This document shows, in pieces, positions 9,823 to 53,913 of a stretch of DNA of 64,000 nucleotides (position 1 is the first letter of the stretch; every line of letters starts with the position of its first letter). Made by a program: the position numbers and the translations under genes. A model generated the notes under the pieces. It had not been told where the DNA came from. It saw only the letters and a program-made list of their open reading frames with translations, and searched no databases. Source of the stretch: a bacterium (GTDB taxonomy: Bacteria; Sysuimicrobiota; Sysuimicrobiia; Sysuimicrobiales; Kaftiobacteriaceae); assembly GCA_044868695.1 (NCBI GenBank), contig JBIOWP010000053.1, forward strand, positions 35,103-99,102. The letters are read 5' to 3'.

Positions 9823-11339
9823 CACGCCTCGCCGGTTTTCAACAGACGCAGCGGCTCGACGTTGGGTCCCGACCGGTGCTGCTCCTGACCGCGGGTCGGG
9901 CGATGGCATTCGCAATGACCTTCGCCACCCCTCTCGTGCTCGCGAGGGTGTTCGATCAGGCCGCGTTTGGCACGTACAAGCAGCTGTTCCTCGTCTACGG
10001 GACGATTGCGGCGATCGCCCAATTGGGGATGGCCGACAGCCTGCTCTACTTCCTGGCGTCAACGCCGGATCGCGGCGGGCGGTACGTCCTGAACAGCCTC
10101 CTGGCCCTGGCCGGCAGCGGGCTGGCGTGCCTGGGGCTCCTCGCGGTTGCTGGTCCGGTGCTCGCGCACTGGCTGGGCAATGGCATGCTGTCGGGGCTGT
10201 CGGGACTGCTCGGCGCGTACGTCCTGCTGATGCTTCCCGCCACGGTCCTGGAGATTGTCATGATCGCGCGCAGGCACTATGGGAATGCGGGGCTGGTGTA
10301 CGGCCTTTCCGATCTGGTCAAGGCGGTCGCACTGGTCGTCCCAGCCGTCGTGACCCGGAGACTAGAGTGGCTGCTGGCTGGCGGAGTGGCGTTCGGCGCG
10401 ATCCGGCTTGGGGGGACGCTCTTGTACCTCGCCCGAGAGTATGCGGGCGAGTTGCGAACCGACCGGATGGCGCTGCGGCGGCAGTTGGCCTATGGCCTCC
10501 CTCTCCAGCTCGGCGTCGGCTTGTGGATTCTGGTGCAAAGTCTCCACTACTACATCGTCGCTGCGGGCGTGGACGCGGCCACGTATGCGATCTACGCGGT
10601 CGGCTGCCTCCAGATTCCGATCATCGACATGCTGTCCACGCCGTCCAAGAACCTGCTCACGGCGCGCATGCGAGAGGCAGTGACCGCGGACCAGTCCGGT
10701 GCCGCGCTCGCGCTCTGGCACGATACAACGCGCAGGCTCGCGCTCGTCTTCTTCCCGCTCGCCGGGCTCCTGGTCGCGACGGCCCGAGACTTGATCCCGG
10801 TGCTCTTTACGGACCGATATGCCGCGAGCATTCCGATCCTTATGGTCTGGTCACTGATCGCACCAGCGTACGCGGCGCAGCCGGATGGCGTGCTGGCCGT
10901 CTACGCCGAAACCCGTGCAATCGCCGTCGTGCACGCGATCCAGCTGCTGCTCATGACGGTCTTGGTGCTCGCGTTCATACGGCTGTTCGGACTCGTCGGC
11001 GCGGTGCTGGGAACGGTGCTCGTCATTTGGGTCGGCAAGGTCCTCATGCTCCTCCGCGCTCGGCGCCTCTTGCGTGTGACACTCGCCGCGCTGCTGCCCT
11101 GGCGGAGTCTCGGCATCATCTCGGGCGCCGCCGCCGCTTCCGCTCTGATCGCCGTGGAGGTCAACGCACACCTGGCAGTGGGGCAGGTGCCGGCCCTGAT
11201 CCTCACATCGGGCGCCTGCGTGGTGACGTACGTGGGGATCCTGGTGCTGTGCGGATTCATTGACCTCGAGGCGCGACCCGGCCGGGGTCTAATCGCGGTC
11301 TCGCCGTTGGCCGTGAGGGGAGGCAGTCATGAGCCTTAA
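9819..11339 (+). CDS. wzx: Oligosaccharide flippase (Wzx)
   Basis: Many TM helices; LARVFDQAAFGTY, LAYGLPL; EPS context. Confidence 0.8.
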   Translation: MTRLAGFQQTQRLDVGSRPVLLLTAGRAMAFAMTFATPLVLARVFDQAAFGTYKQLFLVYGTIAAIAQLGMADSLLYFLASTPDRGGRYVLNSLLALAGSGLACLGLLAVAGPVLAHWLGNGMLSGLSGLLGAYVLLMLPATVLEIVMIARRHYGNAGLVYGLSDLVKAVALVVPAVVTRRLEWLLAGGVAFGAIRLGGTLLYLAREYAGELRTDRMALRRQLAYGLPLQLGVGLWILVQSLHYYIVAAGVDAATYAIYAVGCLQIPIIDMLSTPSKNLLTARMREAVTADQSGAALALWHDTTRRLALVFFPLAGLLVATARDLIPVLFTDRYAASIPILMVWSLIAPAYAAQPDGVLAVYAETRAIAVVHAIQLLLMTVLVLAFIRLFGLVGAVLGTVLVIWVGKVLMLLRARRLLRVTLAALLPWRSLGIISGAAAASALIAVEVNAHLAVGQVPALILTSGACVVTYVGILVLCGFIDLEARPGRGLIAVSPLAVRGGSHEP

Positions 11340-12090
11340 GGAGGCGGTGCGGGAGTATTGGGAATTGCAGCCGTGCGGCGCGAGTCCGAGCATTGTCGGG
11401 GTTCTCCCGCGCGCCAGCCGGGAATGGTTTGAGAAGATTGAGGAGCACCGCTACCGCCTCGAGCCGTTCATCCATGCCGTCGCTCAGTTTACTCGTCACA
11501 GGGGCAAGCGTGTGCTGGAGATCGGAGTAGGGACGGGGACCGATTTCCTCCAGTGGGCACGGGCCGGAACCCGCTGTGTGGGTGTCGACATGACCGACGA
11601 AGGCGTTGAGCTCACGAAGGCGCGGCTGGCATGTTACGGGTTCGCCCCTGAGGTCATCCGCGCCGATGCGGAATGCCTGCCATTCTCCGATACCTCATTT
11701 GACCTGGTGTATTCCTGGGGAGTCCTGCATCACACTCCCGATCCGGGAGCGGCGGTGCGGGAGATCCGGCGGATCCTGAAGCCCGGGGGAACGTTCATCG
11801 GGATGATGTACCACCGGCGTTCGGTGCTGGCCTTCAAGTTCTGGGTCTGGTATGGTCTCCTGCGAGGTCGGCCCTGGCGCAGCTTCGCAGACGTGCTCTG
11901 GCACCACATGGAGAGCCTCGGCACGAAAGCGTACACCATTCCGGAATTGCGCGAGCTCTTTGGAGAGTTCGCCAGCTTCAGCGCGCGGCCGATCCTGACC
12001 CCGTACGACCGGAAACGCTGGCCGCGGGTCGTGTCGGCGTTCTTTCCCGATGCCTGGGGCTGGTTCACCGCGATCACCGCAACCCGCTGA
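11329..12090 (+). CDS. Class I SAM-dependent methyltransferase
   Basis: VLEIGVGTG, DAECLPFSDTSFDLVYSWGVLHH, RILKPGG. Confidence 0.9.
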   Translation: MSLKEAVREYWELQPCGASPSIVGVLPRASREWFEKIEEHRYRLEPFIHAVAQFTRHRGKRVLEIGVGTGTDFLQWARAGTRCVGVDMTDEGVELTKARLACYGFAPEVIRADAECLPFSDTSFDLVYSWGVLHHTPDPGAAVREIRRILKPGGTFIGMMYHRRSVLAFKFWVWYGLLRGRPWRSFADVLWHHMESLGTKAYTIPELRELFGEFASFSARPILTPYDRKRWPRVVSAFFPDAWGWFTAITATR

Positions 12091-34519: not shown

Positions 34520-37500
34520 TTATTGTGCGACGAGCCGTAGCGCCGCGAAGCCGAAGTACTCCTGGTCGGCGGCGATGCGCAGAACGTGCTGGCCGGCGGT
34601 AAGTGCAATGCCGCCGGGACCGGCCCACTGGAAGGTGCTCCACGAACCGGTGTTGGGGGCCTGGATGGAGCTGGTGACCGTTGCACCGTCAATCTCGCCG
34701 TGCCAGCGGGGCGTGGGCGACCACCCCTGGTTGCTCACCAGGAGCTCGAGGCGATAGGTGCCGGTCGTGGCGACCTGGATCGTGTACTCGAGCCACTCGC
34801 CGGTCTGGAAGTTGAAGATGATCACGCCACCGTCGGGTTGCTGCCGGATGTCGACGCCGACGTCCGTGCGGTAGAAGCCGCCCTGGTTGCCGGCGGTGAG
34901 GTCGTGGTAGGCGACGCCCTCGCCGCCGTTGTCAAAGTCCTCGGCCTCGATCTGGCCCGGTGCTGCGGCGGGCGTCCCCTTGTAGGGGGTGCCCGAGATC
35001 CTGAACCGCAGGGCCGCGAAGCCGAAGTACTCCTGGTCGGCGACGATGCGCAGAACGTGCTGGCCGGCGGTAAGTGCAATGCCGCCGGGACCGGCCCACC
35101 GAAAGGTGTTCCACGAGCCGGTGTTGGGGACCTGGATGGAGCTGGTGACCGTTGCACCGTCAATCTCGGCGTGCCAGCGGGGCGTGGGCGACCACCCCTG
35201 GTTGCTCACCAGGAGTTCGAGGCGATAGGTGCCGGTCGTGGCGACCTGGATCGTGTACTCGAGCCACTCGCCGGTCTGGAAGTTGAAGACGATCACGCCA
35301 CCGTCGGATTGCTGCCGGATGTCGACGCCGACGTCCGTGCGGTAGAAGCCGCCCTGGTTGCCGGAGGTGAGGTCGTGGTAGGCGACGCCCTCGCCGCCGT
35401 TGTCAAAGTCCTCGGCCTCGATCTGGCCCGGCACCGAGGAGGGCGTGCTGGTGAACGGAGACTGGGTCGGGACAGCGACGGGCGCGGTCGTGACCGTGAA
35501 ATCACCCGAGACCGCGGCGTTTCCGGCCGCGTCTGCGGACCGCACACGGTAGTGATAGATGGTCGCCGGCGTCAGACCACCGAGGGTGACCGCATGTGCG
35601 GTGATCATGTTCGTCGCGAGCGGAGTCGCGCTGCCGTAGCTTGTCGACACTCCGTACTCAACCTGCGAATCGCTCGCCTCACCGGTCGTCCAGGTGATGC
35701 CGGCGCCGGACGACGTGACGGATGAGGCGGCGACCGAAGAAATGACCGGAGGCGTGGTGTCCGCCGCGACGTTGCTCACCGTGACCGTAATCGCCGGGGA
35801 TATGCCCTGATTGCCCGCTCCGTCACGCGCCATCGCGGTGAGCGAGTATGAGCCGTTGCTGACCGTGGCCGTGTCCCAGGAGATCGAGTACGAGTTGGTC
35901 GTGTCCTCGGCGCCGTAGTTGGCACCGTTGACCCTGAACTGCACTCCAACGACGCTCGTATTGTCCGTGGCGGTCGCAGAGATCGTGACCGTCCCGGAGA
36001 CTGTCCCAGCGAGCGGAGAGGTCAGCGTGACTGCCGGCGGGGTGCTGTCCGCAGGGGTCGAACCTGTGCCGCTGATCGCCGTGGCCGTCGCGGCCGCGAG
36101 GGCGTCGATATCGGCGCCCGGGTCCTTGCCATCGAGGCCAAGATACTTGTACGGGCTCGCCACTGACAGGCGATAGTCGCCGGCGGCATAGCTGACGAAG
36201 CCGACCAGGTCGAGCGTAGTCGGGAGGAAGTTGTCGACCGGGTAGCCCGTCGCCGCCGCTCCGACCAGCGCGTTCCTGGCGAACACGGCGTCGGGGAAGT
36301 ACGTGCTGAATGTTGCTGACGGCGTGCTGGTCCCGTCGCCGCGCACCCCGTTGTTGTTGAGCACGATATTGTTCGTGTAGGTCAGCCGCGGCGCCGCCCC
36401 GTACTGTCCATACAGCGGCGATGCGGTGTGGAAGGCGGTGTTGTGGTCGATGGTGACGTCCTCGGGACGGTTCTTCAGGTCGAACAACATCCCCGTGAAG
36501 AAGCCCCAGACGACGTCCGGGAACGCCCCGATCTCGAGCAGCAGGTTATCCTTGACCAGCACCCGCCGAAGCGGCTCCTGGTTCGATTGGATGTCGTCCC
36601 AGCCCAGGAAGAAAATCCCACCTGTGGCGCGTCTGATGACGTTGCGGACGAATGTCACGTCGCGCACGGTCGCCCAGGGGTTGCCGCCGTACTGGTTGCG
36701 GGGGGTGAATTGGACACCAAAGCCGCCCTGGCTGTTCATGTTGCCCGTCCAGCTGTTCTCGAAGATGTTGCCCTCGATCAACACGCGCTGAGCGTTTTTG
36801 AGTTCAAAGATGTTCTTGACGACCCAGTTGACGCCGGCGTACGAGGGATCCCCGACTTTCCACGACAGCGGCTTGAAGAGGTAGTTGCCGCGGATCTCGA
36901 TGTCTGAGGGCATGTTCGCAGAGCTGCTGGCGTCGGTGCCGCCGAAGAACAGGTTGACGCCCGATCCCTCCAGGTAGTTGTTCACGAACTTGAAGGGACC
37001 GGGCCCGTTGAATCCCCAAATGGCCGAGGAGTCGAACTGGCGGTGATGCCACTCGGAGAGGTAGGAGTCGATGACCGCCGTTCGCCTGCCGTTCACCATG
37101 ACCCCCGTCCGGGCGTCCTGCCCGGGTCGCGCGTGAATGTAGCAGCGGTCGAAGACGATGTCGGTGCCGTTGACGTCGAGCAGGGTCAGGACGGAGCCGC
37201 TGACCGGCGTGATGAATTCAACACCGATGAAGCGGTAGTGGTGGGCGCCCGATCCCATCCCCAGCGCTGGGTTGCCCACGACTTTCGGCATGAGCGCCGC
37301 CTGCGCGGGCGTCACGCGAATGCCTGGGACAGGCAGGCTGCTGAGCGCTGAGGACTGGATGTAGATCCATCCGGTGCCGCTCGTCACGGGCAGGGTGAAG
37401 TTGCCCGCGTACGTGGCCCCCGCCTGGAGGACGATGACGCTCCCCGGCTGGGCTGTGTTGAGCGCGCCCTGGAAATCCCCGCCGGCAGGCACGGAGATGG

Positions 37501-37669
37501 TCGGCCCCGTTGGAGGCGCGTAGGTAGTGTCGAGGTAGATGCGGGGGAGCTCGGGCAATGTGGCCGCTTGCGCGACAGACTGCAGGGGGCCGACGAGCGT
37601 GACCGCGGCTGAGACGATCAACATCGCGGGCAGAACTGCGCGAACGACATACCTCCGGACATGAAACAT
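34520..37669 (-). CDS. Large secreted protein: beta-helix domain + Ig-like + FN3-like + two CBM6-like domains
   Basis: Signal peptide ending AQA; beta-helix paralog; WTTGEASDSQVEYG FN3-like; 2x IEAEDFDNGGEGVAYHD...GEWLEYTI. Confidence 0.8.
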   Translation of the reverse strand: MFHVRRYVVRAVLPAMLIVSAAVTLVGPLQSVAQAATLPELPRIYLDTTYAPPTGPTISVPAGGDFQGALNTAQPGSVIVLQAGATYAGNFTLPVTSGTGWIYIQSSALSSLPVPGIRVTPAQAALMPKVVGNPALGMGSGAHHYRFIGVEFITPVSGSVLTLLDVNGTDIVFDRCYIHARPGQDARTGVMVNGRRTAVIDSYLSEWHHRQFDSSAIWGFNGPGPFKFVNNYLEGSGVNLFFGGTDASSSANMPSDIEIRGNYLFKPLSWKVGDPSYAGVNWVVKNIFELKNAQRVLIEGNIFENSWTGNMNSQGGFGVQFTPRNQYGGNPWATVRDVTFVRNVIRRATGGIFFLGWDDIQSNQEPLRRVLVKDNLLLEIGAFPDVVWGFFTGMLFDLKNRPEDVTIDHNTAFHTASPLYGQYGAAPRLTYTNNIVLNNNGVRGDGTSTPSATFSTYFPDAVFARNALVGAAATGYPVDNFLPTTLDLVGFVSYAAGDYRLSVASPYKYLGLDGKDPGADIDALAAATATAISGTGSTPADSTPPAVTLTSPLAGTVSGTVTISATATDNTSVVGVQFRVNGANYGAEDTTNSYSISWDTATVSNGSYSLTAMARDGAGNQGISPAITVTVSNVAADTTPPVISSVAASSVTSSGAGITWTTGEASDSQVEYGVSTSYGSATPLATNMITAHAVTLGGLTPATIYHYRVRSADAAGNAAVSGDFTVTTAPVAVPTQSPFTSTPSSVPGQIEAEDFDNGGEGVAYHDLTSGNQGGFYRTDVGVDIRQQSDGGVIVFNFQTGEWLEYTIQVATTGTYRLELLVSNQGWSPTPRWHAEIDGATVTSSIQVPNTGSWNTFRWAGPGGIALTAGQHVLRIVADQEYFGFAALRFRISGTPYKGTPAAAPGQIEAEDFDNGGEGVAYHDLTAGNQGGFYRTDVGVDIRQQPDGGVIIFNFQTGEWLEYTIQVATTGTYRLELLVSNQGWSPTPRWHGEIDGATVTSSIQAPNTGSWSTFQWAGPGGIALTAGQHVLRIAADQEYFGFAALRLVAQ
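34542..35431. repeat. Near-identical tandem duplication of about 420 bp (34542-34960 and 35013-35431, period 471) encoding two CBM6-like domains
   Basis: Direct nucleotide comparison shows only scattered substitutions. Confidence 0.95.
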
Positions 37670-37721: not shown

Positions 37722-37810
37722 CCCCTTCTTCGGTAGCCCGGCTGTCAGAAGGACCTGACCCGTGGCTTTGCGTCCCCGTCTCGCGACGGGTTTGCGTTTT
37801 CGGAAAGAGG
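37722..37810 (-). ncRNA. c-di-GMP-I (GEMM-I) class riboswitch aptamer, variant
   Basis: Minus strand reads CCGAAAAC-GCAAACCCGUC-GCGA-GACGGGGACGC-AAAGCCACGGGUC...GACAGCCGGGCUACCG; GNRA-capped P2, GGACGCAAAGCC core and 3' CUACCG; in 5' UTR of 37669 gene. Confidence 0.9.
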
Positions 37811-40768: not shown

Positions 40769-40830
40769 GAGGGCGCATGCGGCTGCGAAAGGACCGCCGG
40801 CGGCGGGGATCCGCGGCGGTGGAGGGCACT

Positions 40831-42123
40831 GTGACGCTGGGGCAGCGGATCAAGGCGGCGCGTCGGACGCGCGGCATGACCCAGCGTGAGCTTGCCTCCG
40901 GGGAGTGCTCGATCAGCCTCATCAGCATGGTCGAGCACGGCCGGGTCCGTCCATCGTTGTCCATGCTGCGCATGCTGGCCGAGCGGCTGGGTCTGCCGCT
41001 CAGCCACTTTCTCGATGGCGAGGGCACGCCGGCTCCTGCGCTCCTGCTCCAGCGGGCCGAGGCGCTGCTGCGGCAACACAGGTTCGCCGAGGCGCTGGAG
41101 GCGTTCGAGGGGGCGCGGACCGGGGGAGATAGTCTCCATCAGGCGCGCTGCGAGCTGGGGATGGGCCAAGCCCTGGCCGGCCTCCGGCGCTTTGAAGGTG
41201 CTGCGCGGCACCTAGCTCGGGCGGCGGAGGTGGCCTCGTCGTCGCACGACCCTGAGCTCATCGCCTCGGTCGCCAATGCCCAGGGATTTTTCGCGTTTCG
41301 CGCGCGGCGCTTTGCGGCGGCGCAGGAATTGTTTGAAGACGCGCTCATCCGACTGCGTGCGGCCGGGCTGCAGCAGACGGAGGTCTACGGCAAGCTGCTG
41401 GCCAACGCCGGCCGCGCCGCGATCGAGCTCGGTCTCCCCGCTCAGGCGCTGGAGTATTTCAGGCAGGCGTCCGACACGCTGGCCGCCGCGGCCGATCCCT
41501 ACCATCTCGGGCTGCTGTACTACAACCTGGGTGTGGCCTGGGAGCAGCAGCAGTCGTTTGAGCGCGCCCACGAATCTCTGCAAAAGGCCGCCCATCTGTT
41601 CATGGTACACGAGAACGCGCGGCTGCTGGGAATGGTGAAACGTAGCCTCGGGATGCTGCACCTCGAGCACGGCGCAGTCGACGCCGCTCGCAGTGCGCTC
41701 GAGGAAAGCCTCCGGCTGGCGGGTCAGAGCGGCGATGACGAAGGGACGGCCCAGACACTCGTGGAGATCGCCCGGCTGCGCGTCCGCGAGGGAGACGCGG
41801 CTGCCGCCGAGCGCGCGGCGTCTGAAGCCGAAGCGCTGGCCCTTCGGATTCATGATGATGCGGAAGTGGCACGGGCCAAGGCAGCGCTGGCGGAGGCGCT
41901 GGCCGCCTCAGGTCGTGCCCACGACGCCGTCGCGAGCTACGAGGACGCCGTGGCGGCATTCTCTCACTTGGGGATGACCGGTGAGGCGATCCGGGTGAGC
42001 CGCGACCTCGGGTTCCTCCTGCTGAAGGAGGGCACCCCCGACCGCGCGGCCCACTGGTTTGCCCGGGCATTTGACCTGCAGCGCGGAAGACCGGACGGCC
42101 GGTTGGCCGGTGAGAGAGGATGA
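40831..42123 (+). CDS. XRE-HTH + tetratricopeptide-repeat transcriptional regulator (RRNPP/NprR-like architecture)
   Basis: LGQRIKAARRTRGMTQRELA...ISMVEHGRVRPSL; multiple TPRs (e.g. LYYNLGVAWEQQQSFERA); start may be ATG 40777. Confidence 0.85.
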   Translation: MTLGQRIKAARRTRGMTQRELASGECSISLISMVEHGRVRPSLSMLRMLAERLGLPLSHFLDGEGTPAPALLLQRAEALLRQHRFAEALEAFEGARTGGDSLHQARCELGMGQALAGLRRFEGAARHLARAAEVASSSHDPELIASVANAQGFFAFRARRFAAAQELFEDALIRLRAAGLQQTEVYGKLLANAGRAAIELGLPAQALEYFRQASDTLAAAADPYHLGLLYYNLGVAWEQQQSFERAHESLQKAAHLFMVHENARLLGMVKRSLGMLHLEHGAVDAARSALEESLRLAGQSGDDEGTAQTLVEIARLRVREGDAAAAERAASEAEALALRIHDDAEVARAKAALAEALAASGRAHDAVASYEDAVAAFSHLGMTGEAIRVSRDLGFLLLKEGTPDRAAHWFARAFDLQRGRPDGRLAGERG

Positions 42124-42527
42124 CACAATCCGCACGCGGGACCGCGGAGGCGCCTGGGGACCCCCGCGATCCACGCGGTGTGCAGTCGCTGATGCGGGTG
42201 ACCGCCGGCGCCGCCTCAGGCGGACCGCCGATTCGCCTGCGCGTGGCGCGCGGGCGGGTCGAGGAAGTGCTGTGCGAAGTCGACCTGGACGGAGTCCGCT
42301 ACACGCTGCTGCGGGTGCGGCCGCAGGGGTCGGCGATCGGTCTCAGCCGCCGCGAGCGGGAGGTGGCCTCGCTGGTTGCCGCGGGGCTACCGACCAAGGC
42401 GATCGCCAGAGCGCTGTCGATCAGTGCCTGGACGGTATGCTCGCACCTGCGCCGCGTCTACGCCCGCCTCGGCGTCGGGTCCCGGGCGGCCATGGTGGCT
42501 AGATTACTCGAAGAGGGTCTCTTGTAG
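42120..42527 (+). CDS. LuxR-type HTH regulator without receiver domain
   Basis: LSRREREVASLVAAGLPTKAIARALSISAWTVCSHLRRVYARLGVGSR. Confidence 0.85.
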   Translation: MTQSARGTAEAPGDPRDPRGVQSLMRVTAGAASGGPPIRLRVARGRVEEVLCEVDLDGVRYTLLRVRPQGSAIGLSRREREVASLVAAGLPTKAIARALSISAWTVCSHLRRVYARLGVGSRAAMVARLLEEGLL

Positions 42528-42644: not shown

Positions 42645-43544
42645 CTAGTGGAGCTTCTGGTCGCGCGCGCCCGGCACATCGCAGTACCAGGCGGCCAGGC
42701 GGGCAAAGGACAGGATCGGCGGCAGCGAGGCGCGGATGGAGGCGGCGATGCGCTCCGGCGCCGCCAGCCCGCTGCCGGTGAGCAGCTGCCACCGTGACTC
42801 CACCGCCGCGCCGAGGTGCAGGGCCAGTTCCATCGTCACCAGGTTTGCGTCGACCAGGGGCACGAAGACCTCCCACCGCCGGCTGGGCCGCGGGATGTCG
42901 AAGATGTTGAGCATCGCCTTCGCGATGCCCGTGGCGGCGCCGGCGGCGTTGGCGAACCAGCCAATGATCTGCCCCAGCGACTCCGGATCATGCCCCGCCG
43001 CGTCGGCGTTGCGGGTCGCGGCCTCCAGGACCGCCGAGGAGGCCAGGATGCGCGCCAGCCGCCACCCGATGCGGACGGGATCGAGCGGCCGGGGAGGCTG
43101 AGGCAGCACAAAACCCGGGCTGCCGGGCAGGCCGGGGCCGAGGTTGCGTGCCTGTTGGATGGCTTCCTTCGCATCCTCGAGAATCGACGCCTTCTCGTGA
43201 TCCATCCGGGCGGCCGCCAGCGCACGGAACGCGTCCGCCGCTTCGGGGTGATTCGTGACGATCGGCTGCGCGCCGGTCAGGATCTCGTGAATCACCGGCA
43301 GGATGTGCGTGTTCAGCGCAAACGGCATCAGGATCCCCGGCGCATCGTCCAGCGGATTCGCGCCGCCCAGCCGCTCCAAATAGTCGGTCATCTCATCTTC
43401 GGTGAGGCGGTCTAAGAACAGCAGCGCGATTTCGATGTCGCTGTCTGCCCAGGTGCGCTCGTCGGCGTACTTCCCGTACAGGTACACGGCGGCGACGTCG
43501 GGTTCATGGGCGAAAAAGGCCTTGAGAGCAGAGAAGGCGCTCAC
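42645..43544 (-). CDS. Fusion of minimal nucleotidyltransferase-like and DUF86/HEPN-like domains, both with degenerate catalytic motifs
   Basis: VAAVYLYGKYA......SDIEIALL (cf. FGS.A......SD.D.A); C-terminal IPRPSRRWEVF..L.....ELALHLGAAVESRWQLLT resembles DUF86. Confidence 0.6.
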   Translation of the reverse strand: MSAFSALKAFFAHEPDVAAVYLYGKYADERTWADSDIEIALLFLDRLTEDEMTDYLERLGGANPLDDAPGILMPFALNTHILPVIHEILTGAQPIVTNHPEAADAFRALAAARMDHEKASILEDAKEAIQQARNLGPGLPGSPGFVLPQPPRPLDPVRIGWRLARILASSAVLEAATRNADAAGHDPESLGQIIGWFANAAGAATGIAKAMLNIFDIPRPSRRWEVFVPLVDANLVTMELALHLGAAVESRWQLLTGSGLAAPERIAASIRASLPPILSFARLAAWYCDVPGARDQKLH

Positions 43545-43603: not shown

Positions 43604-44017
43604 TCATTCCGCGCTCATGCGCGGGAGACTCTCCCGGACGGCGGCGAGCAGTTCCATCGGGTTGAACGGCTTGGTCAGGATGCGGTCGGCTCCGGACTGC
43701 TGCGCGCGGGTCAGCATCTGCGGGGTCCCGAACCCCGTGATCAGCACCACCCGGATCGCCGGGAGTTTGGCCTTGGCATGCTCGAGCACCTCGAGGCCGG
43801 AGATCCCGGGCATGCGGATGTCGGAGATCATCAGATCGAACGCATCCTGCTGTAGCCTGACAAGCGCGTCCTCCCCGCTGGGCGCGGTCGTGACGGTGTA
43901 TCCGGCGCGGGTCAACACCCGGGCGCACAGGTCGCGGATCGACTCTTCGTCGTCAACGACCAGGATGCGCGCGGCAGCCACTCTGGAGGGCTGCGCCGAC
44001 TGCACGGGGCCGTTCAT
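43604..44017 (-). CDS. Single-domain response regulator (REC)
   Basis: [24 protein letters not shown]. Confidence 0.92.
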
Positions 44018-45966
44018 GCGTGGGCCACCGGCAGGGTGATGGTGAAGCGCGTCCCCCGGCCGGGCGCGCTGTTGACCGCGATCGACCCACCGTGCCGCTC
44101 CACGATGCGCTTGCTGATCGGCAGGCCGAGCCCCGTACCTTTGCCGTCCTCCTTCGTGGTGAAGAACGGATCGAAGATGCGGTCGAGCTGTTCCGTCGGG
44201 ATGCCGACGCCGGTGTCCTGGAAGGCGATCTCGACCCGCGGGCCGGTCCCGTTGCCGCCGACCTCGCGGGTGGTGATTTCAACGGCACCGCCATCCGGCA
44301 TCGCATCGATGGCGTTGTTGAGGATGTTGATGAACACCTGTTTGAGCTGGTTGAGGTCGCCCATGATCTGGCGGACCGAGGGATCCAGCTTCGACGCGAT
44401 GCTGACGTTCTGGGTCTCTGCCCGGCGGCGGATCAGCGGCAGCACGCTTTCGATGGCCTCGTTGATGTGGGTCTGCTCCATCGCCGAGTCGGTCTGGCGA
44501 GCGTAGCCCAGCAGGTCGCGCACGATGGCGCGCGCGCGCAGGGCTTCCTTTTCGATGACTTCCAGGTCGGCCCGTTTGGTATCGTCCGCCGCGGTTTCGC
44601 TGAGGATAAGGGAGGCGTAGCCCAACACGCTGGTCAGCGGGTTGTTGATCTCGTGCGCGATGAACGCCGCGAGTTCGCCGATCGTGGCCAGCTTGGCGGA
44701 CTGCATCAACTGGAACTGCGTTTGCTCCAGCATCGCCATCTGCCGCTGGAGGTTGCTGAACAGCTGCGCCTTCTCCACCGCCACCGCTGCCTGGCTGGCC
44801 ATGGTGGACAGCAGGTTCGTCTCCTGAGGGGACAGCACCTGGCGTGTCCCGACGATGACCAGACCCACCGCTCGCTCGCCGACCGCCATGGGGATGGCCA
44901 CCACCATGGTGTCGTAGCGCAGCGGGCCGTATTGGGTCAGCTGGGTGATTTCCTCGGTGTGCTCTGCCTGCCGGTAGACCTGCGGTCCCCGCAACTGGAG
45001 CAGGCGGCGGAGGGCAGGATCCGCGGCGCTCCGCTGAAACGGCGGAAACTCCTCTTCCGCGGTGCGCCACAGCCCGAACTCGATCGTGTCCGTGGCAGGG
45101 CTGTAGACGCCGACCCCAACCACGTCGACCGAGGGGATCTTGCGCACCTGGGCGTGCAGCGCGTCGTACACCTGCGCCAGGTCCAGGCTGCTGGTGAGCG
45201 CCCGCGCCAGTTCATTCAGGCTGGCCAGTTGCTGTGCCCGGCCCTCGGCCTCCTGCTTGCTGCGCTGGATGCGCTCGGCGTCCTCGATCTGCATGCGCAG
45301 CATCTGGGAGAGGCCGATCAGCGGGAGCATCAACAGCACCGTGCGCCAGGGGTTGACGATCCAGAAGTCTGCCACCACCGCGCCCAGCCAGATCAGCACC
45401 ATCTCCCGGTAGAAGCTCGACCGCGAGATGACCCCAACTTGCCCAAAGGGCTTGTTGGCGGCGAGGGTGATGGCGAGCGTGACCAGCGCGCCGTTCACAG
45501 CGTAGAAGATTGTGCCGGCGAGGAATGCCGCCGCATACCACTGGATTGCCAGGACGCCTTCGGCTGCGGCCGGCCGGGTCAGTGTCCAGACCGCCTCGGC
45601 CATCGCGACGGAGAGGATGTGCTGGGCGATGTTGAACGCCCCCTGGTACCAGGGCAGTTCGCGCCGCTTGAACCAGTACGCGGAGAAGGTGATGAGGACG
45701 AGGACAATGGTGTTTCCAATGGGGAACAGCAGAATGGTGGCGACGATGACGGCGTTGATCAGCGACCAGGCGATGCCCTGGCGGCCGGGCATGATGACCC
45801 GGACGCCGACCAGCTGGGTGAGGAGCGCCGTGCCGATGAAGACGAAGAAGGGCAGGTCCAGCCGCGCCGCCGCCCCCGGGAGCTGCGGCAGCACCGCCGC
45901 GAGGACGCCGCCGGCGATGATGACGCCGAGGACGTAAATCCGGGCTGGCAGAGAAAGGTTTTTCAT
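44014..45966 (-). CDS. Sensor histidine kinase with multi-TM N-terminal sensor and GAF domain (NtrB-like transmitter)
   Basis: About 7 TM segments in first 220 aa; [45 protein letters not shown]. Confidence 0.92.
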
Positions 45967-46051
45967 CGGTGTACCATCATGAACGCAAATGGCCCGGGGG
46001 CCGCCCGGTCAGACCCGGCGGCCGCCGGGATGGACTCCGAGATTAGATTAG

Positions 46052-46077
46052 CCCCTGGCGGGGTGGCCCGCCAGGGG
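46052..46077 (-). terminator. Stem-loop right after peptide gene 2 (attenuator or mRNA stabiliser)
   Basis: CCCCTGGCGGG-GTGG-CCCGCCAGGGG 11-bp stem; no clear U-tract. Confidence 0.5.
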
Positions 46078-46084
46078 GCGCGGT

Positions 46085-46234
46085 CTACTCCCAGGCTTCG
46101 CTGGCTGCGTCGAACATTTCCCAGGTCGCCGACTCCCAGGTCGCTGACTCCCAGGTGGCGGAGCCCCAGGATACCGATGCCGCCGCGAACATCGCGAGTG
46201 CGAACGTGACTGCGGCGGCCAGAATCTTTCTCAT
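46085..46234 (-). CDS. 49-aa secreted SATWE-repeat peptide, copy 2
   Basis: GGGAGGG RBS; MRKILAAAVTFALAMFAAA-SVSWG-SATWE-SATWE-SATWE-MFDAA-SEAWE. Confidence 0.88.
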   Translation of the reverse strand: MRKILAAAVTFALAMFAAASVSWGSATWESATWESATWEMFDAASEAWE

Positions 46235-46282
46235 CGTCGATCCCTCCCGTGGGTCGAATCGCGTTGCTACCCATAGAATGGA

Positions 46283-46297
46283 GCAAGATTGGTGCCA
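46283..46297 (-). promoter_or_regulatory. Sigma54 -24/-12 promoter for peptide copy 2 and kinase operon
   Basis: TGGCAC-CAATC-TTGC on minus strand. Confidence 0.85.
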
Positions 46298-46395
46298 CAA
46301 CGCCCGGGAAATGCCCACTTTCAAGAAGCTTCCGAGAATTGTTATGCCCGAATCTGAGGGGGTCGAGCGCGGGACCAGGGGGGCCGGCCGGACAA

Positions 46396-46430
46396 CACGA
46401 CGAGGGGGTCCGGTGGACCCCCTCGTCGTG
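46396..46430 (-). terminator. Perfect 16-bp stem-loop after peptide gene 1
   Basis: CACGACGAGGGGGTCC-GGT-GGACCCCCTCGTCGTG. Confidence 0.6.
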
Positions 46431-46460
46431 ACATGCGTGATGTCTCAGACCTTCGGCGAT

Positions 46461-46610
46461 CTACTCCCAGGCTTCGCTGGCTGCGTCGAACATTTCCCAG
46501 GTCGCCGACTCCCAGGTCGCGGACTCCCAGGTGGCGGAGCCCCACGACACGGAGCTGGCAGCGGCCAGCATCAGGATCGAGAGCGCGAAGGCGGCAATGA
46601 CTTTCCGCAT
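46461..46610 (-). CDS. 49-aa secreted SATWE-repeat peptide, copy 1
   Basis: GAGGAG RBS; MRKVIAAFALSILMLAAAS-SVSWG-SATWE-SATWE-SATWE-MFDAA-SEAWE. Confidence 0.88.
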   Translation of the reverse strand: MRKVIAAFALSILMLAAASSVSWGSATWESATWESATWEMFDAASEAWE

Positions 46611-46722
46611 TGATTTACTCCTCTTTTTCGCGGGATAGACCCGCCATCTCGCCGGTGAGGAACCGCATGAATGCTGCCTTCCGAATCGAGATGTCAATCG
46701 GTCTCCACAAGACGGCTCGCTG

Positions 46723-46751
46723 ACTGTAACACACGTCACACACACTGTCAA
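46723..46751 (-). promoter_or_regulatory. Sigma70-type promoter for peptide copy 1
   Basis: TTGACA (46751-46746)-N17-TACAGT (46728-46723) with extended TG. Confidence 0.7.
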
Positions 46752-46831
46752 CGCAACTTCTGTTCCGTTCACCCTGTCTATCGACACCCTACCCAAAAGC
46801 TTGAGCCGGTAGGCCAGCCGACACCTCCCGG

Positions 46832-46846
46832 TGGCACCGGAGTTGC
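46832..46846 (+). promoter_or_regulatory. Sigma54 -24/-12 promoter
   Basis: TGGCAC-CGGAG-TTGC upstream of FlgN-like gene. Confidence 0.85.
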
Positions 46847-46897
46847 TCTTACTCCTCGCGGACCATTCCCACCTCAACGATGCGAGGGTGTCAGGCG

Positions 46898-47278
46898 ATG
46901 GATGAGGCGACCGCACGGCTTCGAGCGATTCTTCAGCGTGAAGTATCCGTCCACCGGGAGCTCCTGCGCCTGGCCCGTTCGCGCCACATGCTCCTGCGGC
47001 AGGGGCGGTTCGAGGAAGCTGCCGACCTGGCGGTGCTCGAGGCCGCGTTTGTCGTCACCCTGCGGGACCTGGAAGCCAGGCGCGGCCGGCTGGCCGGACA
47101 GCTGCCCGGGGCAGACCGCGTCATCGTCCGGTCCACCCGCAAGATCGCCTCTCTTGTTCGCGGGTTGGGCGCGGTCGAACGGGCGAACCGGACGCTGTGG
47201 TCGCAGCACGTGCTTGCGCCCGCCCTGACCGTGGTGGCGACCGCGCATCGGCGGGGCGATGCCGCGAGGCTGAACTAA
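46898..47278 (+). CDS. FlgN-like helical chaperone
   Basis: L..IL..E...HRELL.LA......L......................L..LE..R ... N..L pattern; 126 aa. Confidence 0.55.
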   Translation: MDEATARLRAILQREVSVHRELLRLARSRHMLLRQGRFEEAADLAVLEAAFVVTLRDLEARRGRLAGQLPGADRVIVRSTRKIASLVRGLGAVERANRTLWSQHVLAPALTVVATAHRRGDAARLN

Positions 47279-47307: not shown

Positions 47308-47408
47308 CCCGCCGCCTCAGTGCTCTGAACGCGGGAACCGGGTGCAGGCGAACCTCAGGGGGGACGCTGCGACGCCGACCGCACGGAGCCGAGGCGGCGG
47401 GCGTTTTT
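47308..47408 (+). ncRNA. Candidate structured RNA or leader (about 94-nt rod-like hairpin plus U-tract)
   Basis: CCCGCCGCCTC/GAGGCGGCGGG, GCTCTG/CGGAGC, GCGG/CCGC and GCAG-GCG/CGC-TGC nested pairings, then CGTTTTT. Confidence 0.45.
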
Positions 47409-47483: not shown

Positions 47484-48842
47484 ATGGTAACCAACGGGAC
47501 ATCGATCCTCGTTGTCGACGACGAGGAGAATCTGCGCAACCTGTTAAGCAAGATCCTCCGCGATCAGGGGTACGCGGTTGAGACGGCCGTGGACGGGGAA
47601 GAAGGGCTGGCCAAGTACAAGGCCGGCCGCTTCGACCTGATGCTCCTGGATCTTAAACTTCCCAAACTGGATGGCATGAGCGTGTTGCGGTCGGTCATGG
47701 AGCACGATGCCGACGCGCTGGTGATCATCATCACGGCGTTCTCTACGATCGACACGGCCATTCAGGCGATCAAGCTCGGCGCCTACCATTACGTGGGCAA
47801 GCCGTTCCGTCCGGAAGAACTCATGATCGTGGTCAACCAGGCGCTTGAACGCGCCCGGCTGGTGAGGGAGAACCGCGCCCTCCAGCAGGAGCTGATGCGC
47901 ACCTTCAAGTTTGAGGGGATCGTCGGGGACTCCCCGAGGATGCGTGACGTGCTCAACCTCGCGGCCGCCGTCGCTCCCACCGACGCCACCGTCCTGATCT
48001 ACGGCGAGACGGGGACGGGGAAGGAACTGCTGGCCCGGTCCATTCACTTCCAGAGCCCGCGCGCCAACGGCCCCTTCGTCGTGGTCAACTGCGGGGCGAT
48101 TCCCGAAACACTCCTGGAGACGGAGTTGTTCGGTCACGAGAAAGGCGCGTTCACCAGTGCGGTGAGCAGCCGCGTTGGGCGGTTTGAGCGGGCGCAGGAC
48201 GGGACCATCTTCCTGGATGAGATCGGCGACATGAGCGTGGCGATGCAGGTGAAGCTCCTGCGCGTGCTTCAGGAGCGCGTCATCGAACGCGTCGGCGGCG
48301 CCAAACCGATCGACGTCAACGCGCGCGTCGTGGCCGCCACCAACAAAGACCTTAAGAAGACGATCGCCGAGGGGCAGTTTCGCGACGACCTCTACTACCG
48401 CCTGGCGGTCATGCCGATCGAGCTGCCGCCGCTCCGCGAGCGCAAGGAAGACATCCAGACCCTCGCGTACCACTTCTTGAACAAGTACGCCGTGGCGTTC
48501 GGCAAGCGTATCAAAGGCTTCACCCCGGCGGCGATGAAGAAACTCCGCAGCCACCACTGGCCCGGCAACGTGCGCGAACTCGAATACACCATCCAGCGCG
48601 TGGTGATCCTCGCCACCCGGGAGCTCATCGATACTGAGGAGATCTGGCTGGACGAACAACCGTCCCCCGGCTCAAAGTTTCCCAAGGCGTTTTCCCTGGG
48701 GGAGGTCGAGCACCGGCACATCAACGCCGTGCTCAAGATGACCGGATGGAATCTTGACGAAGCGGCGCGGGTCCTCGGCATCGACGCGGCCGCCCTCAAG
48801 GAGAAGATTCAGAAGTACAACATCACTGCAGAAACGGGATGA
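47484..48842 (+). CDS. Sigma54-dependent response regulator (NtrC/AtoC family bEBP)
   Basis: [40 protein letters not shown]-terminal Fis-like helix. Confidence 0.95.
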
Positions 48843-48893: not shown

Positions 48894-48908
48894 TGGCATG
48901 AAACTTGC
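48894..48908 (+). promoter_or_regulatory. Sigma54 -24/-12 promoter for HD-GYP/rpoN operon
   Basis: TGGCAT-GAAAC-TTGC. Confidence 0.8.
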
Positions 48909-48973: not shown

Positions 48974-50446
48974 GTGCTCCCCAAAGCCAGGATCTTGATC
49001 GCCGACGACGAGGCCTCCATCCGGGACCTGTGCTCCAGGATCCTGGGTCGCATCTACGAGGTCTCGGTGGCGCCCGACGGCCCGACGGCGATCGCCATGG
49101 CCCGGACCCAGGCCCCGGACCTCCTGTTGACCGACATCCGGATGCCCGGCCTGACCGGTCTGGAGGCGGCCCGGCAGATCGTGACGGAGGCGCCCGAAGT
49201 CTCCGTCGTGGTGATGACCGGGTTCAGCGAATTCGACAGCCTGCTGGAGACGGTCAAGCTCGGCGTGAACGGGTTCCTGATGAAGCCATTCACGCCGGAC
49301 GACCTGCGCAAGACCGTCGAGGAAGGCCTCCGCAAGGGACTGTACTTCAAACGCAATACGCGCCTGCGGGCGCTGCAGCCGCTGCTGGATCTGCGCGGCA
49401 ACCGTCTGGGGGAAGCCGACCAGGGCCGGGTCTTTGAGATCATCACCGAGACGGTGCTGCACGAGCTCAGCGCCGACACGGTGACGCTGGTGGCGCTGGA
49501 TGAGGATGGGCGTGAACTCATGGTCACGACGTCTGCCAGCGGCACGGAGGCCGGGGGCGTCACGACGACGTCACAGGTCGGCGCGGCGCGCGCATCGGTG
49601 TCATGGAAGGTGGCCCCCGAGGACTTGATGGGTGTGGACGGGATGCCGCCGGCGGCAGTCGAGGATGACGGGCGGACCCTGTCGGTGCCGCTGCAGTCGG
49701 CCGGCCACGTGGTTGGCGTCTTGACGGCGGCGCGGGAAAGCGCGTTTGCCGGCGCCGATCGCGATGTGCTCCGCGTGATCGCCGCCCAGGGCGCGATCGC
49801 CCTCGAGAACATCCGGCTGTTCAAGCGGCTGCGTCGTTCGTACTGGAACACGGTGTACGCGCTCGCGGCGACCGTGGACCTGCGCGACCATCCCACGCGC
49901 GAACACTCCAACCGGTCGGTGGACTACGCCATGGCCATCGGCACGCGCCTGGGGCTGGACGCGGACCGCCTGGAAGATCTGAAGACGGCCGCGCTGCTCC
50001 ACGACATCGGCAAGATCGGCATCGGCGACGGCGTCCTGCTCAAGCCTGGACACCTCACCTCTGAGGAATATGACTGGATGAAGACGCATACCCTCATGGG
50101 GGCGAAGATTCTCGCCATGGCAGATTTCCCAACCCGCGTCGTGGAAGCGGTCCTGTTCCACCACGAGCGATTCGATGGATCGGGCTACCCGATGGGATTG
50201 CGGGGCGACCAGATCCCGGTGGAGGCCCGCATTCTCGCCGGAGTCGATGCGCTCGAGAGCATGACCAGCACGCGGTACTACCGCGTGGCGATGCCGCTGG
50301 CGCAGGCGCTGGCAGAGTTGGAGCGGGGCCGGGGGACACAGTTCGATCCCGATGTGATCGAGGCCGTGCTGGCCGGCCTGCGGGAGGGCGACCTGCACCT
50401 GCTGACCCCCGACGGCGCGCCGGTCGGCGCGTCGGAGCCGGCGTAA
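48974..50446 (+). CDS. REC-GAF-HD-GYP cyclic-dinucleotide phosphodiesterase
   Basis: REC (TDIRMPG); EHSNR, LLHDIGK, HHERFDGSGYP. Confidence 0.92.
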   Translation: MLPKARILIADDEASIRDLCSRILGRIYEVSVAPDGPTAIAMARTQAPDLLLTDIRMPGLTGLEAARQIVTEAPEVSVVVMTGFSEFDSLLETVKLGVNGFLMKPFTPDDLRKTVEEGLRKGLYFKRNTRLRALQPLLDLRGNRLGEADQGRVFEIITETVLHELSADTVTLVALDEDGRELMVTTSASGTEAGGVTTTSQVGAARASVSWKVAPEDLMGVDGMPPAAVEDDGRTLSVPLQSAGHVVGVLTAARESAFAGADRDVLRVIAAQGAIALENIRLFKRLRRSYWNTVYALAATVDLRDHPTREHSNRSVDYAMAIGTRLGLDADRLEDLKTAALLHDIGKIGIGDGVLLKPGHLTSEEYDWMKTHTLMGAKILAMADFPTRVVEAVLFHHERFDGSGYPMGLRGDQIPVEARILAGVDALESMTSTRYYRVAMPLAQALAELERGRGTQFDPDVIEAVLAGLREGDLHLLTPDGAPVGASEPA

Positions 50447-50464: not shown

Positions 50465-51832
50465 ATGTCGACGGGACCGCACATCCAACCGAGTGTCGGC
50501 GCAAGAATCGGGCTGCACCAGCGCATGGTGCCCAAGCTCATGATGGTGAATGCGCTGCTGGTCCTGCCGCTCAACCAGCTGCTCGCCCGCATCGAGCAGG
50601 AACTCTCCGAAAATCCCGCCCTGGAGCTTGATGAGCTGCCGGCGTCCAGCGAACCCGAGTGGTCGGCCGACGAGGCGGGACAGTCGCTGGCGACCTGGAC
50701 CTCTGACGAGGAAGAGTTCGACCCATTCTCGCGCATGGCGGCCCCGGTGTCCCTCCAGGAACATTTGATGATGACGCTGCAGGCGCAGGGGCTGTCGGCC
50801 CGTGACCACGCGATCGGCGAGCGTCTGATCGGCTACATCAATGAAAACGGGTATCTGGAAGCCACGACGGCGCAGGTGGCCCAGGAGTTGAATGCCGAGG
50901 TGGAGGAAGTGGACGCGGTGCTGGGCCGGCTCCAGCGGTTTGAGCCGATCGGGGTCGGCGCCCGCAACGTGGAGGAGTGCCTGCTGCTGCAGCTGCGGGT
51001 CATGGAGTCGAATGCGGCCAACCATCTGGCGCAGCGTATCGTCGAAACGCACCTGCCCGACCTGGCGGCGCACCGCTTTGAAAAAGTGGCCAAAGACCTG
51101 GGATCCACCGTGGCCGAGGTAAAGGACGCCCATGAATTCGTCAAGGCCAACTGCTACCCGTACCCCGGGGAACGCTACCGCAGCGAGCAGGACGGGGGAC
51201 GGGTGCGGCCGGCCGAAGTCGCCCGGCCCGATGTCGTCATCCGGCGCACCGAGGACGGGTTCGCGGTCGAGCTGGTCCGGCAGGACGCGTTCTCGCTGCG
51301 CGTGAACGCGTTCTATGACGATCTCCGGCGGCAGATGCGCCGCGCCGCGTCCGGGTACTCGGACAAGTCGCGCGAGCACGTCCGGGACTACGTCAGCCGC
51401 GCCAAGCTGTTCATCGAGGCCCTGCAGCGGCGGAACTGGACGTTCGCGAACATCGTCCAGACGATCATCCGCACCCAGTGGGAGTTCATCGAGCGCGGCG
51501 AGGCCCACATGAAGCCGCTGACCAAGGCCATGATCGCCGCCGAGCTGGGCATCAGCGAATCGACGGTGAGCCGGGCGCTGGACGGGAAGTTCGCGCAGCT
51601 CCCCGCCGGGCGCGTCGTCAGCTTCGACCTCTTCTTCGACCAGTCGCTGCCGACAAAGGAGCGGATCCGCGCCATCATCGCCGCAGAAACGCAGCCGCTG
51701 ACCGATGAGCAGATCGCCCACACGCTGACGGCCGAGGGCGTCAAGATCGCGCGCCGCACCGTCACGAAGTACCGCGAGGAGATGAACATCTCCCCGTCGA
51801 CCTCGCGCGGCCCCCTGGCGGAAGCCAAGTAG
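50465..51832 (+). CDS. rpoN: RNA polymerase sigma-54 factor
   Basis: ELSENPALE, EPIGVGAR, ISESTVSRA, RpoN box ARRTVTKYRE. Confidence 0.95.
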   Translation: MSTGPHIQPSVGARIGLHQRMVPKLMMVNALLVLPLNQLLARIEQELSENPALELDELPASSEPEWSADEAGQSLATWTSDEEEFDPFSRMAAPVSLQEHLMMTLQAQGLSARDHAIGERLIGYINENGYLEATTAQVAQELNAEVEEVDAVLGRLQRFEPIGVGARNVEECLLLQLRVMESNAANHLAQRIVETHLPDLAAHRFEKVAKDLGSTVAEVKDAHEFVKANCYPYPGERYRSEQDGGRVRPAEVARPDVVIRRTEDGFAVELVRQDAFSLRVNAFYDDLRRQMRRAASGYSDKSREHVRDYVSRAKLFIEALQRRNWTFANIVQTIIRTQWEFIERGEAHMKPLTKAMIAAELGISESTVSRALDGKFAQLPAGRVVSFDLFFDQSLPTKERIRAIIAAETQPLTDEQIAHTLTAEGVKIARRTVTKYREEMNISPSTSRGPLAEAK

Positions 51833-53103: not shown

Positions 53104-53913
53104 ATGGCCGAGCCTCCCCACTCTCTTGCCGCGCTGTGGCAGGCGTTCAAACAACAGCGCACCCCGGCGCTGCGGGAGCATGTGGCCCTCGCCTACCTAC
53201 CGTTGGTGCGGACCCAGGCGCGCCAGATGGCCGGCCGCGTCCCGCCGTCGGTCAGAAGCGAAGACTTGGAAGGCTACGGCATGATCGGACTGCTCGAAGC
53301 CATTGACCGGTTCGACCCGGACCGGAGCATCCCGTTTGAGGTGTTTGCGCGGCTGCGCATTCGCGGCGCGATGTACGACTATCTGCGCACGCTGGACCTG
53401 CTCCCGCGTGTGGCCAGGCGCAACGTCCACCGGGTGCTGGCCGAGGTCAGCGCCCTCACCCGGCGGCTCGGCCGCAAGCCCAGCGACGATGAACTCGTGC
53501 GGGCCACCGGGCTCGAGGCGCGGGCCCTCAGCAAAGTGCTGGCGGACGCGCAAGCAGGGCTGCCGGTCTCGTTGGACGACTTCGATGACGGCAACCGGCT
53601 GCCCGACGCGCTGGTCCGCGATGCCGGAGGCGAGGTGGCCGGCGCCATCGAGCGGCAGGCACGAGACAGTGAACTGTGGCGGGCCATCGAAGTCCTCCCG
53701 GTCCGCCATAAGGTCGTCATCGGCCTGCATTACTGCGAGGGGCTGACGCTGTGGTCGATCGGCCGCGTGCTGCGTGTGACGGAATCTCGTGTCAGCCAGA
53801 TGCGGAGCGAGGCGCTGCAGATGCTGCGCACTCATCTAGCGCTGCGCACGTGGCTGGACGCCGAGGGTCAGCGCCGCTCCCGGGGCGGGCCCGACGCCAC
53901 GGTGGTGGCCTGA
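53104..53913 (+). CDS. fliA: FliA/WhiG-family sigma-28 factor
   Basis: EDLEGYGMIGLLEAIDRFDP, RIRGAMYDYLRTLD, LGRKPSD, VTESRVSQ. Confidence 0.88.
   Translation: MAEPPHSLAALWQAFKQQRTPALREHVALAYLPLVRTQARQMAGRVPPSVRSEDLEGYGMIGLLEAIDRFDPDRSIPFEVFARLRIRGAMYDYLRTLDLLPRVARRNVHRVLAEVSALTRRLGRKPSDDELVRATGLEARALSKVLADAQAGLPVSLDDFDDGNRLPDALVRDAGGEVAGAIERQARDSELWRAIEVLPVRHKVVIGLHYCEGLTLWSIGRVLRVTESRVSQMRSEALQMLRTHLALRTWLDAEGQRRSRGGPDATVVA

Follow-up and report, generated by a model that had tools for sequence, protein, structure and literature searches.

The locus raises the question of why two copies of a small peptide gene have been kept in front of a histidine kinase gene, each behind a promoter motif of a different class. 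The window, i.e., the whole 64,000-nucleotide stretch of DNA that was analysed, belongs to a genome that is 95% complete (G000), and its peptide array was compared with those of 14 relatives. Copy 1 (46461–46610, minus strand) and copy 2 (46085–46234, minus strand) both encoded 49 aa. Each was preceded by an SD sequence (GAGGAG at 46623–46618 and GGGAGG at 46248–46243, respectively), and each product had a hydrophobic N-terminus followed by the tail SVSWG-(SATWE)3-MFDAA-SEAWE. The N-termini were predicted to act as signal peptides for Sec export. The preliminary description of this DNA had held the two products to be identical. This was correct for residues 20–49, which were the same in both copies with four synonymous differences in the DNA, and incorrect for residues 1–19, of which 8 matched. 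At the DNA level, the signal-peptide codons of the two copies were about 60% identical.

Peptide arrays of this kind were carried by 14 of 21 relatives in the family, and no match better than E 0.018 was found among 72 genomes of other families. No further peptide copies were found by searching G000. The profile search collected 82 homologous peptides, few of which had a named lineage, and those were labelled Armatimonadota. The Pfam and NCBIfam scan of both peptides gave no match, and the best ESM Atlas value for the peptide query (0.78) was taken as a lead only. The repeat unit varied by genus, being SATWE, SVTWE, GATWE or TATWE. Within genomes, the DNA of the mature part was more alike (0.73–0.96) than that of the signal part (0.49–0.72), a likeness that would be expected from gene conversion or joint selection. 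The mature parts were fully identical in 2 of 13 copy-1/copy-2 pairs and differed in the other 11. In the literature covered, which took in few subscription journals, no description was found of the peptide family, of a MASE9 ligand or of Trp-tailed subtilases as signal sources. The accessible part of the account of the phylum CSP1-3/Sysuimicrobiota gives it one class and one order, and quorum sensing and sigma factors go unmentioned in that part (PMC11604079).

The promoter motifs of the two copies were located where they had been described. Copy 1 lay behind a near-consensus sigma70 motif with an extended TG (TTGACA-N17-TACAGT, 46751–46723, minus strand; predicted start near 46716), and copy 2 lay behind a sigma54 −24/−12 motif (TGGCAC-CAATC-TTGCT, 46282–46297, minus strand; predicted start near 46271). 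The sigma70 motif was not significant by itself, as the loose scan gave one match and shuffles gave 0.5 ± 0.7. The strict form, TTGACA-N16-18-TAnnnT, occurred 47 times genome-wide against 2.8 expected (17-fold), mostly 5′ of gene starts, and all 15 loci, in genomes from five genera, had the motif with the extended TG upstream of copy 1. The sigma54 pattern TGGCAC-N5-TTGC occurred five times in the window against 0.05 expected, with about 1e-4 expected within the 226-nt spacer, and a sigma54 motif was found upstream of 6 of 1159 SD-bearing ORFs in G000. All 18 downstream peptide copies (second and third) were behind a sigma54 motif, 43–52 nt from the ATG. No exchange of class, i.e., a sigma70 motif before a downstream copy or a sigma54 motif before copy 1, was seen in the 15 loci. 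Moreover, the same promoter order was found in all 19 metagenome loci with a full upstream region; these loci were chosen by the kinase sensor (24 fetched and 22 examined, 3 of these being too short), and many are probably from the same species as the genomes. These counts denote conservation and not independent trials because the sets overlap and the genomes are kin. The split between a sigma70 copy and sigma54 copies was conserved in the family. A relative with a single copy and no sigma54 copy (G056) was considered as a counter-example and rejected. Its copy-1 front was joined to copy-2 downstream DNA, and it was read as a collapse of two copies and left out of the counts. The mature peptide of G056 occurred in two copies in the metagenome loci L146 and L154.

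The upstream region of copy 1 had a further motif, missed in the preliminary description. A FliA/WhiG (sigma28)-type site, TCAAGCTT-N11-GTCGATAG (46778–46804, minus strand; predicted start near 46771), was located 26 nt upstream of the sigma70 −35 element. Its −10 element was seen at all 15 loci and read GCCGATAG or GCCGATAA in 10 of them. The site scored at least 11 of 16 in 11 of the 15 loci, a score reached by 0.07% of random 175-nt windows, and of the 53 sigma70 sites of G000, that of copy 1 alone was accompanied by such a score. The eight-letter −35 element used for the scoring is one that we assumed. In the accessible part of PMC8325347, the FliA/WhiG consensus consists of a −35 TAAA, N15 and a −10 GCCGATAA, and the filter admits at most two mismatches; the G000 site had the correct spacing and three mismatches to TAAA/GCCGATAA, and that filter would exclude it. 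The site and a fliA orthologue (identity at least 63%) occurred together in all 15 genomes; the G046 contig with a broken fliA was 4.3 kb. The site was found in none of the three fliA-less loci of genus g4 (G042–G044, 83–95% complete), in which all losses count as one event. The joint loss of fliA and the site in g4 supports the site as real. The preliminary description had called copy 1 constitutive. Because the sigma28-type site is conserved and the fliA gene is itself preceded by a sigma54 motif, copy 1 is probably not constitutive alone, and basal expression with induction by FliA is more likely. A second tandem sigma54 and sigma28 promoter was found in G000 at C15:190/224; in this region (C15:190–620, plus strand), the tandem motifs were followed by two sequences that by eye resembled c-di-GMP-I riboswitches and by a secreted protein. 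A sigma28 site 5′ of the activator gene, with a score of 11.5 in G000, was rejected as it was unconserved in the 11 relatives checked.

Leader and hairpin elements of the two copies were also examined. The copy-1 leader (46632–46706, minus strand) contained a conserved AGACC...GGTCT helix, with flanking unpaired A, that closed a variable insert of about 7–60 nt just 5′ of the copy-1 ribosome site. No covariation was seen in the five core pairs, and Rfam gave no significant match; the helix is possibly a protein-binding site. After copy 1, a perfect hairpin with a 16-bp stem and a 3-nt loop was confirmed (46396–46430, minus strand), as had been reported. Its stem was GC-rich, its folding z value was −5.8, and none of 200 shuffles was as stable. 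The U-tract was weak in G000, with 4 T in the 10 nt after the hairpin against 4–8 in 12 relatives. The terminator scan, which asks for 5 T in 8 nt, did not call it, and the hairpin itself was kept in the relatives. It is likely a terminator or a 3′ stabiliser, and some read-through is possible because only 4 T follow it in G000. The perfect sigma54 site had been assigned to copy 2 and the kinase together. The assignment was supported for copy 2. The joint transcript was less secure, as two GC-rich hairpins without a U-run (46052–46077 and 45993–46029, minus strand) lay between copy 2 and the kinase gene and the g4 kinase had its own sigma54 motif; a shared transcript is only plausible.

The activator that the sigma54 motif would need is encoded in the same locus. 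The gene at 47484–48842 (plus strand) encoded a REC-AAA+-HTH sigma54 activator with intact Walker A, Walker B and R-finger and a GAFTSA loop. The loop was GAFTSA in 14 of 14 loci read and GAFTGA in the three g4 loci. According to the accessible part of PMC4641369, sigma54 promoters need an activator and several fifth-position GAFTGA variants are functional, with GAFTSA not listed there. This activator was the only full-length PF00158 protein found in G000. Since no other was found, copy 2 must depend on it, if the sigma54 site works. The claim that copy 2 is amplified through this activator is supported to that extent, and its kinase step is one that we infer, because the kinase gene overlaps that of a stand-alone receiver. 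No activator binding site shared by the sigma54 motifs was found by k-mer counts or palindrome search. A GGGCAT half-site was present about 50–75 nt upstream of the copy-2 sigma54 site in some genera only.

The kinase (44014–45966, minus strand, 650 aa) comprised a MASE9-like membrane sensor (residues 1–235) and GAF, HisKA and HATPase domains. It had 650 aa in G000, G039 and G040 and 764–766 aa in the other 12 relatives, and the shorter form probably has one GAF domain fewer. The stand-alone receiver gene (43604–44017, minus strand) overlapped the kinase stop codon, an arrangement of translational coupling. The best matches were AtoS/ZraS for the kinase and AtoC/ZraR for the activator, all below the cut-off. 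Each of the other seven HisKA-type kinases found in G000 adjoined a receiver, and the three receivers of the locus were the most alike in the genome. The adjacent kinase is, on this gene context, the most plausible partner of the activator. Directly 3′ of the kinase and receiver genes, a conserved gene with an MntA-like nucleotidyltransferase domain was observed (42645–43544, minus strand), which was inverted in genera g6 and g4. An XRE-TPR regulator and a LuxR-type HTH gene (40780–42527, plus strand) adjoined the locus in most relatives.

Six of the 13 strict sigma54 motifs of the genome were located in this locus. Besides that of copy 2, a divergent motif (46832–46847, plus strand) preceded a FlgN-like gene (46898–47278), both lost along with fliA in g4. 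The motif at 48894 (plus strand) preceded a REC-GAF-HD-GYP gene (48974–50446) and rpoN (50465–51832). The motif at 51996 opened a plus-strand segment reaching 54417 with a GAF-GGDEF gene, a fliA/whiG-family sigma gene (53104–53913; TIGR02479 above the cut-off) and a roadblock gene. In the segment 54466–58979 (plus strand), two further motifs (54466 and 55095) preceded a type IV pilin and a cluster of secreted-protein genes (55147, 55688 and 56469), which are likely outputs; this cluster presumably resembles a pilus system. Flagellin was detected in none of 22 family genomes, and the search of G000 for FlgM found none. The sigma54/FliA cascade looks repurposed because no flagellin was detected in the family. 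In genus g6 (L036–L041), an extra ORF after the FlgN-like gene was observed, which we take to resemble FlaG and which is possibly a flagellar relic. Elsewhere in G000, strict sigma54 motifs (C115:53966 and 56138; C28:11055 and 11403) were found before a second FliA-related sigma factor and small genes; the gene behind one of these motifs is, by our assumption, a PilT-like ATPase.

Further elements were observed around these genes. Between the FlgN-like gene and the activator gene, an RNA-like element (47308–47408, plus strand) had a long closing stem, a U-tail and an invariant 16-nt core. It was present in 14 of 15 loci, the G038 locus being truncated, and absent from the three g4 loci; Rfam gave no match to it, and it is possibly a sigma54-dependent small RNA. 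A c-di-GMP-I-GGC riboswitch (37728–37805, minus strand; 67 bits, above the gathering score) was located 5′ of a gene for a 1049-aa secreted protein (34520–37669). A long same-strand run of glycosyltransferase, adenylation-domain and asparagine-synthase-like ORFs (81–34444, plus strand) appeared by eye to be an exopolysaccharide locus, and the scan found no strict sigma54 motif pointing into it.

The sensor of the kinase bears on what the peptide is for. The sensor domain was present in 17 of 21 relatives, and all 17 had xxTWE-type peptides directly upstream. The search with the sensor gave 502 representatives at E ≤ 0.001. Among 79 homologues scanned, 21 matched MASE9, 44 GGDEF and 23 HD. The window kinase itself gave no match to PF20972 (MASE9) at E ≤ 0.01, and the homology is indirect through 21 of the 79 relatives. 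In the accessible part of the MASE9 paper, no ligand is given and binding is expected to take place inside the membrane (bioRxiv 10.1101/2021.11.05.467447). In the structural comparison (VIA-align), the top 14 matches of the sensor model (mean pLDDT 92) were all ECF S-component entries, with Z values of 9.1–14.3; the best aligned 186 residues of this predicted model at Z 14.3 and an rmsd of 3.5 Å. The sensor is therefore predicted to have an ECF S-component fold with a small-ligand pocket, and this fold would suit a vitamin-sized ligand equally well.

The longer matches of the peptide profile included S8 proteases ending in xxTWE or xxSWE repeats, with weak E-values. Of 77 such S8 loci, 59 had a homologous sensor no more than 3 kb from the protease, directly downstream in 54, as against none of five tail-less S8 loci; the strict repeat rule mislabels interrupted Trp tails, and these five controls were chosen by reading the tails. 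Seven S8 loci without a sensor were Trp-tailed proteases on contigs with short flanks. The occurrence of homologous sensors beside S8 proteases with similar Trp-repeat tails suggests that the Trp repeat is the ligand. In the quick tree, the sensors of the family stood apart from the Chloroflexota sensors adjoining xxTWE-tailed proteases, and a simple shared origin is thus disfavoured. This pairing of Trp-tailed S8 subtilases with MASE9-like sensors was not found in print. No processing protease was found in the locus. Elsewhere in G000 (C159:16950–18664, plus strand), a weak sigma54-like motif (score 16.8) was observed in front of a secreted S8 protease that has no Trp tail and is a candidate maturation enzyme. 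Upstream of a second MASE9-like sensor, fused to an HD-GYP-like domain (C74:33837–36000, minus strand), were a membrane protein and a tiny hydrophobic peptide with GGKW at its end; at the locus L143, a tiny peptide resembling this one also preceded the sensor.

The retention of the duplicate had been explained by the split in promoters, an explanation that the comparison with g4 weakens. This genus keeps the kinase, the activator and rpoN. It has lost fliA together with the FlgN-like gene, and neither the sigma28 site nor the sigma70 motif is present. It had 2–3 peptide genes, all behind sigma54 motifs, and the kinase had a separate sigma54 motif. Three-copy arrays with two sigma54 copies were also found in 4 of the 15 genomes, and identical mature parts, as noted above, were the minority. 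Because g4 retains 2–3 sigma54-driven copies and no sigma70 copy, the split is not the only reason for the duplicates, and the basal copy is dispensable in that genus. The g4 peptides have diverged, and their mostly single terminal GATWE indicates that the terminal xxTWE is the functional unit. In one g4 locus (L122 of G042, 10990–11463), three peptide genes were observed, the middle of which had a Gly-Asn repeat linker before the terminal GATWE and shared its sigma54 motif with the first.

The motifs, the gene order, their conservation and the single activator were established here, and from them a primed positive-feedback loop can be proposed, in which the peptide is sensed by the adjacent kinase and switches on the sole sigma54 activator detected. 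We place this circuit, as a whole, only a little short of an even chance. Its steps differ in strength. The sigma70 promoter would, very probably, supply basal copy-1 peptide, with the hairpin limiting read-through. Once the peptide has been exported by Sec and trimmed, an xxTWE unit, probably that at the C-terminus, would bind the S-component-fold sensor of the kinase, a step that we consider somewhat more probable than its opposite. The kinase would then phosphorylate the receiver of the activator, either directly or against competition from the coupled stand-alone receiver and the HD-GYP receiver; this appears probable. It is highly probable that the activator and sigma54 would express copy 2, probably with the kinase, together with rpoN and the HD-GYP, GGDEF, fliA and pilus genes, as a fast arm. 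Newly made FliA would probably express copy 1 from the sigma28-type site as a delayed second arm. That the peptide activates rather than inhibits is an assumption with a reasonable balance in its favour. The output would likely be a switch, governed by cell density, to pili, c-di-GMP signalling and attachment to surfaces.

Other readings of the same locus were weighed against this circuit. The promoters may work as read and the peptide may be an output, or a modulator bound to the membrane or periplasm, with the kinase sensing another ligand (e.g., a vitamin-sized one) or the state of the envelope. This reading is unlikely on balance, although it deserves serious weight. S-components bind vitamins and metals, unrelated outputs also lie behind the six strict sigma54 sites, the locus is without a protease, and the quick tree of the sensors does not track the TWE unit. 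Furthermore, the invariant SVSWG also matches units in S8 tails (L080, L083 and L084); hence, SVSWG may be a repeat and not the place of cleavage, in which case the peptide could remain anchored. The reading fits less well with the peptide directly upstream in 17 of 17 sensor-bearing relatives, with the recurrence of the sensor family beside Trp-tailed proteases and tiny Trp-ending peptides, and with a mature part that is genus-variable yet homogenised within genomes. A distinctly smaller chance is given to the peptide as an inhibitory ligand. Copy 1 would then act as a brake at the basal level, and negative feedback through the sigma54 and sigma28 arms would limit or end the expression of pilus and c-di-GMP genes. 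The sign of the feedback cannot be read from sequence, a c-di-GMP phosphodiesterase belongs to the regulon, as does a stand-alone receiver that is a potential phosphate sink, and a kinase active in the absence of the peptide would more easily account for g4, which has no basal copy. However, rpoN and fliA behind sigma54 motifs look self-reinforcing, and most peptide/histidine-kinase quorum systems are activating.

The remaining two readings concern the copies themselves. The sigma70 motif precedes copy 1 in all 15 genomes, from five genera, and never a later copy. This makes it quite improbable that dose, or a role as specificity intermediate, is the main reason for keeping the copies, with the promoter difference being historical and no division into basal and induced expression. 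What speaks for that reading is the occurrence of two sigma54 copies in 4 of 15 genomes, the all-sigma54 arrays of g4, the unequal mature parts in 11 of 13 pairs and, in the accessible part of PMC5199041, the service of duplicated Phr autoinducers as specificity intermediates. A single sigma70 transcript that continues past the hairpin and includes both copies as well as the kinase, with the sigma54 motif unused, is hardly to be expected. The weak U-tract in G000 and the failure to find an activator binding site would agree with it, whereas the motif at a fixed distance in 18 of 18 downstream copies, against a background of 6/1159, and the U-rich tails in relatives argue against it.

By analogy, the proposed primed loop would work like ComCDE/Agr or Phr signalling and be without their defining features. 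ComC-ComD-ComE and AgrD-AgrC-AgrA are the peptide/histidine-kinase quorum-sensing systems of Bacillota. The locus shares with them a small exported-peptide gene directly 5′ of a polytopic histidine kinase gene, lineage-specific variants, and basal and feedback transcription, which is here proposed from motifs. In contrast, the present kinase is HisKA/AtoS-like with GAF and HATPase_c and not HPK10, the outputs are a sigma54 activator and a REC-only protein and not LytTR, and the leader is of the Sec type, the locus having no gene for processing of the double-glycine or AgrB kind. The basal and induced arms, moreover, are here on separate gene copies with different sigma factors. The accessible part of PMC5199041 describes Phr precursors with a signal peptide and five-residue units, both intragenic and whole-gene duplication, and two promoters for some phr genes. 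The signal peptide, the five-residue units and the duplicated signal are thus shared with Phr of Rap-Phr/RRNPP (PMC5199041). Unlike in that system, the adjacent receptor gene encodes a membrane kinase and not a cytoplasmic TPR protein, the XRE-TPR gene being 4 kb distant and on the opposite strand; the units here are acidic and Trp-containing, and the second promoter class is sigma54/sigma28.

The sensor is homologous to MASE9 (PF20972) through the relatives counted above, but it is fused to GAF-HisKA and not to HD-GYP/GGDEF, and a candidate ligand gene lies next door. Hierarchies from sigma54 to FliA govern flagellar regulation. As in these hierarchies and in the WhiG regulation of Rubrobacter, rpoN, an NtrC-type activator, fliA and an FlgN-like gene occur in one locus, with a FliA-type motif and likely pilus/c-di-GMP outputs; Rubrobacter WhiG controls type IV pili and c-di-GMP genes, according to the accessible part of PMC8325347. 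Unlike in the flagellar and WhiG cascades, the cascade here appears to feed back on the peptide gene, in a family in which 0 of 22 genomes gave a flagellin. The S8 subtilases with Trp-repeat tails also have five-residue Trp units (xxTWE in Chloroflexota) directly 5′ of the same sensor family, whereas here the tail alone stands behind a signal peptide with no protease domain, and the sensors were not sister groups in the quick tree.

Basal and feedback transcription of a signal is an already known design. A wider reading, which we regard as tentative and somewhat unlikely, is that the family uses peptide quorum sensing outside Bacillota on a repurposed flagellar sigma cascade, in which sigma70 primes, sigma54 amplifies the second copy and sigma28 locks in the first. 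The C-terminal xxTWE would then be the first ligand of MASE9-like sensors with an S-component fold, and Trp-tailed S8 proteases in other phyla would release the same kind of signal. If this is true, a widespread orphan sensor would have a directly testable ligand in a five-residue synthetic peptide, with the genus variants as specificity controls. A feedback loop divided over gene copies and three sigma factors would be compact and could be reconstructed in a laboratory strain, with g4 as a naturally occurring deletion of its sigma70/sigma28 arm. For this lineage, apparently the uncultivated CSP1-3/Sysuimicrobiota, it would mean a peptide-controlled sigma54 regulon with a single activator.
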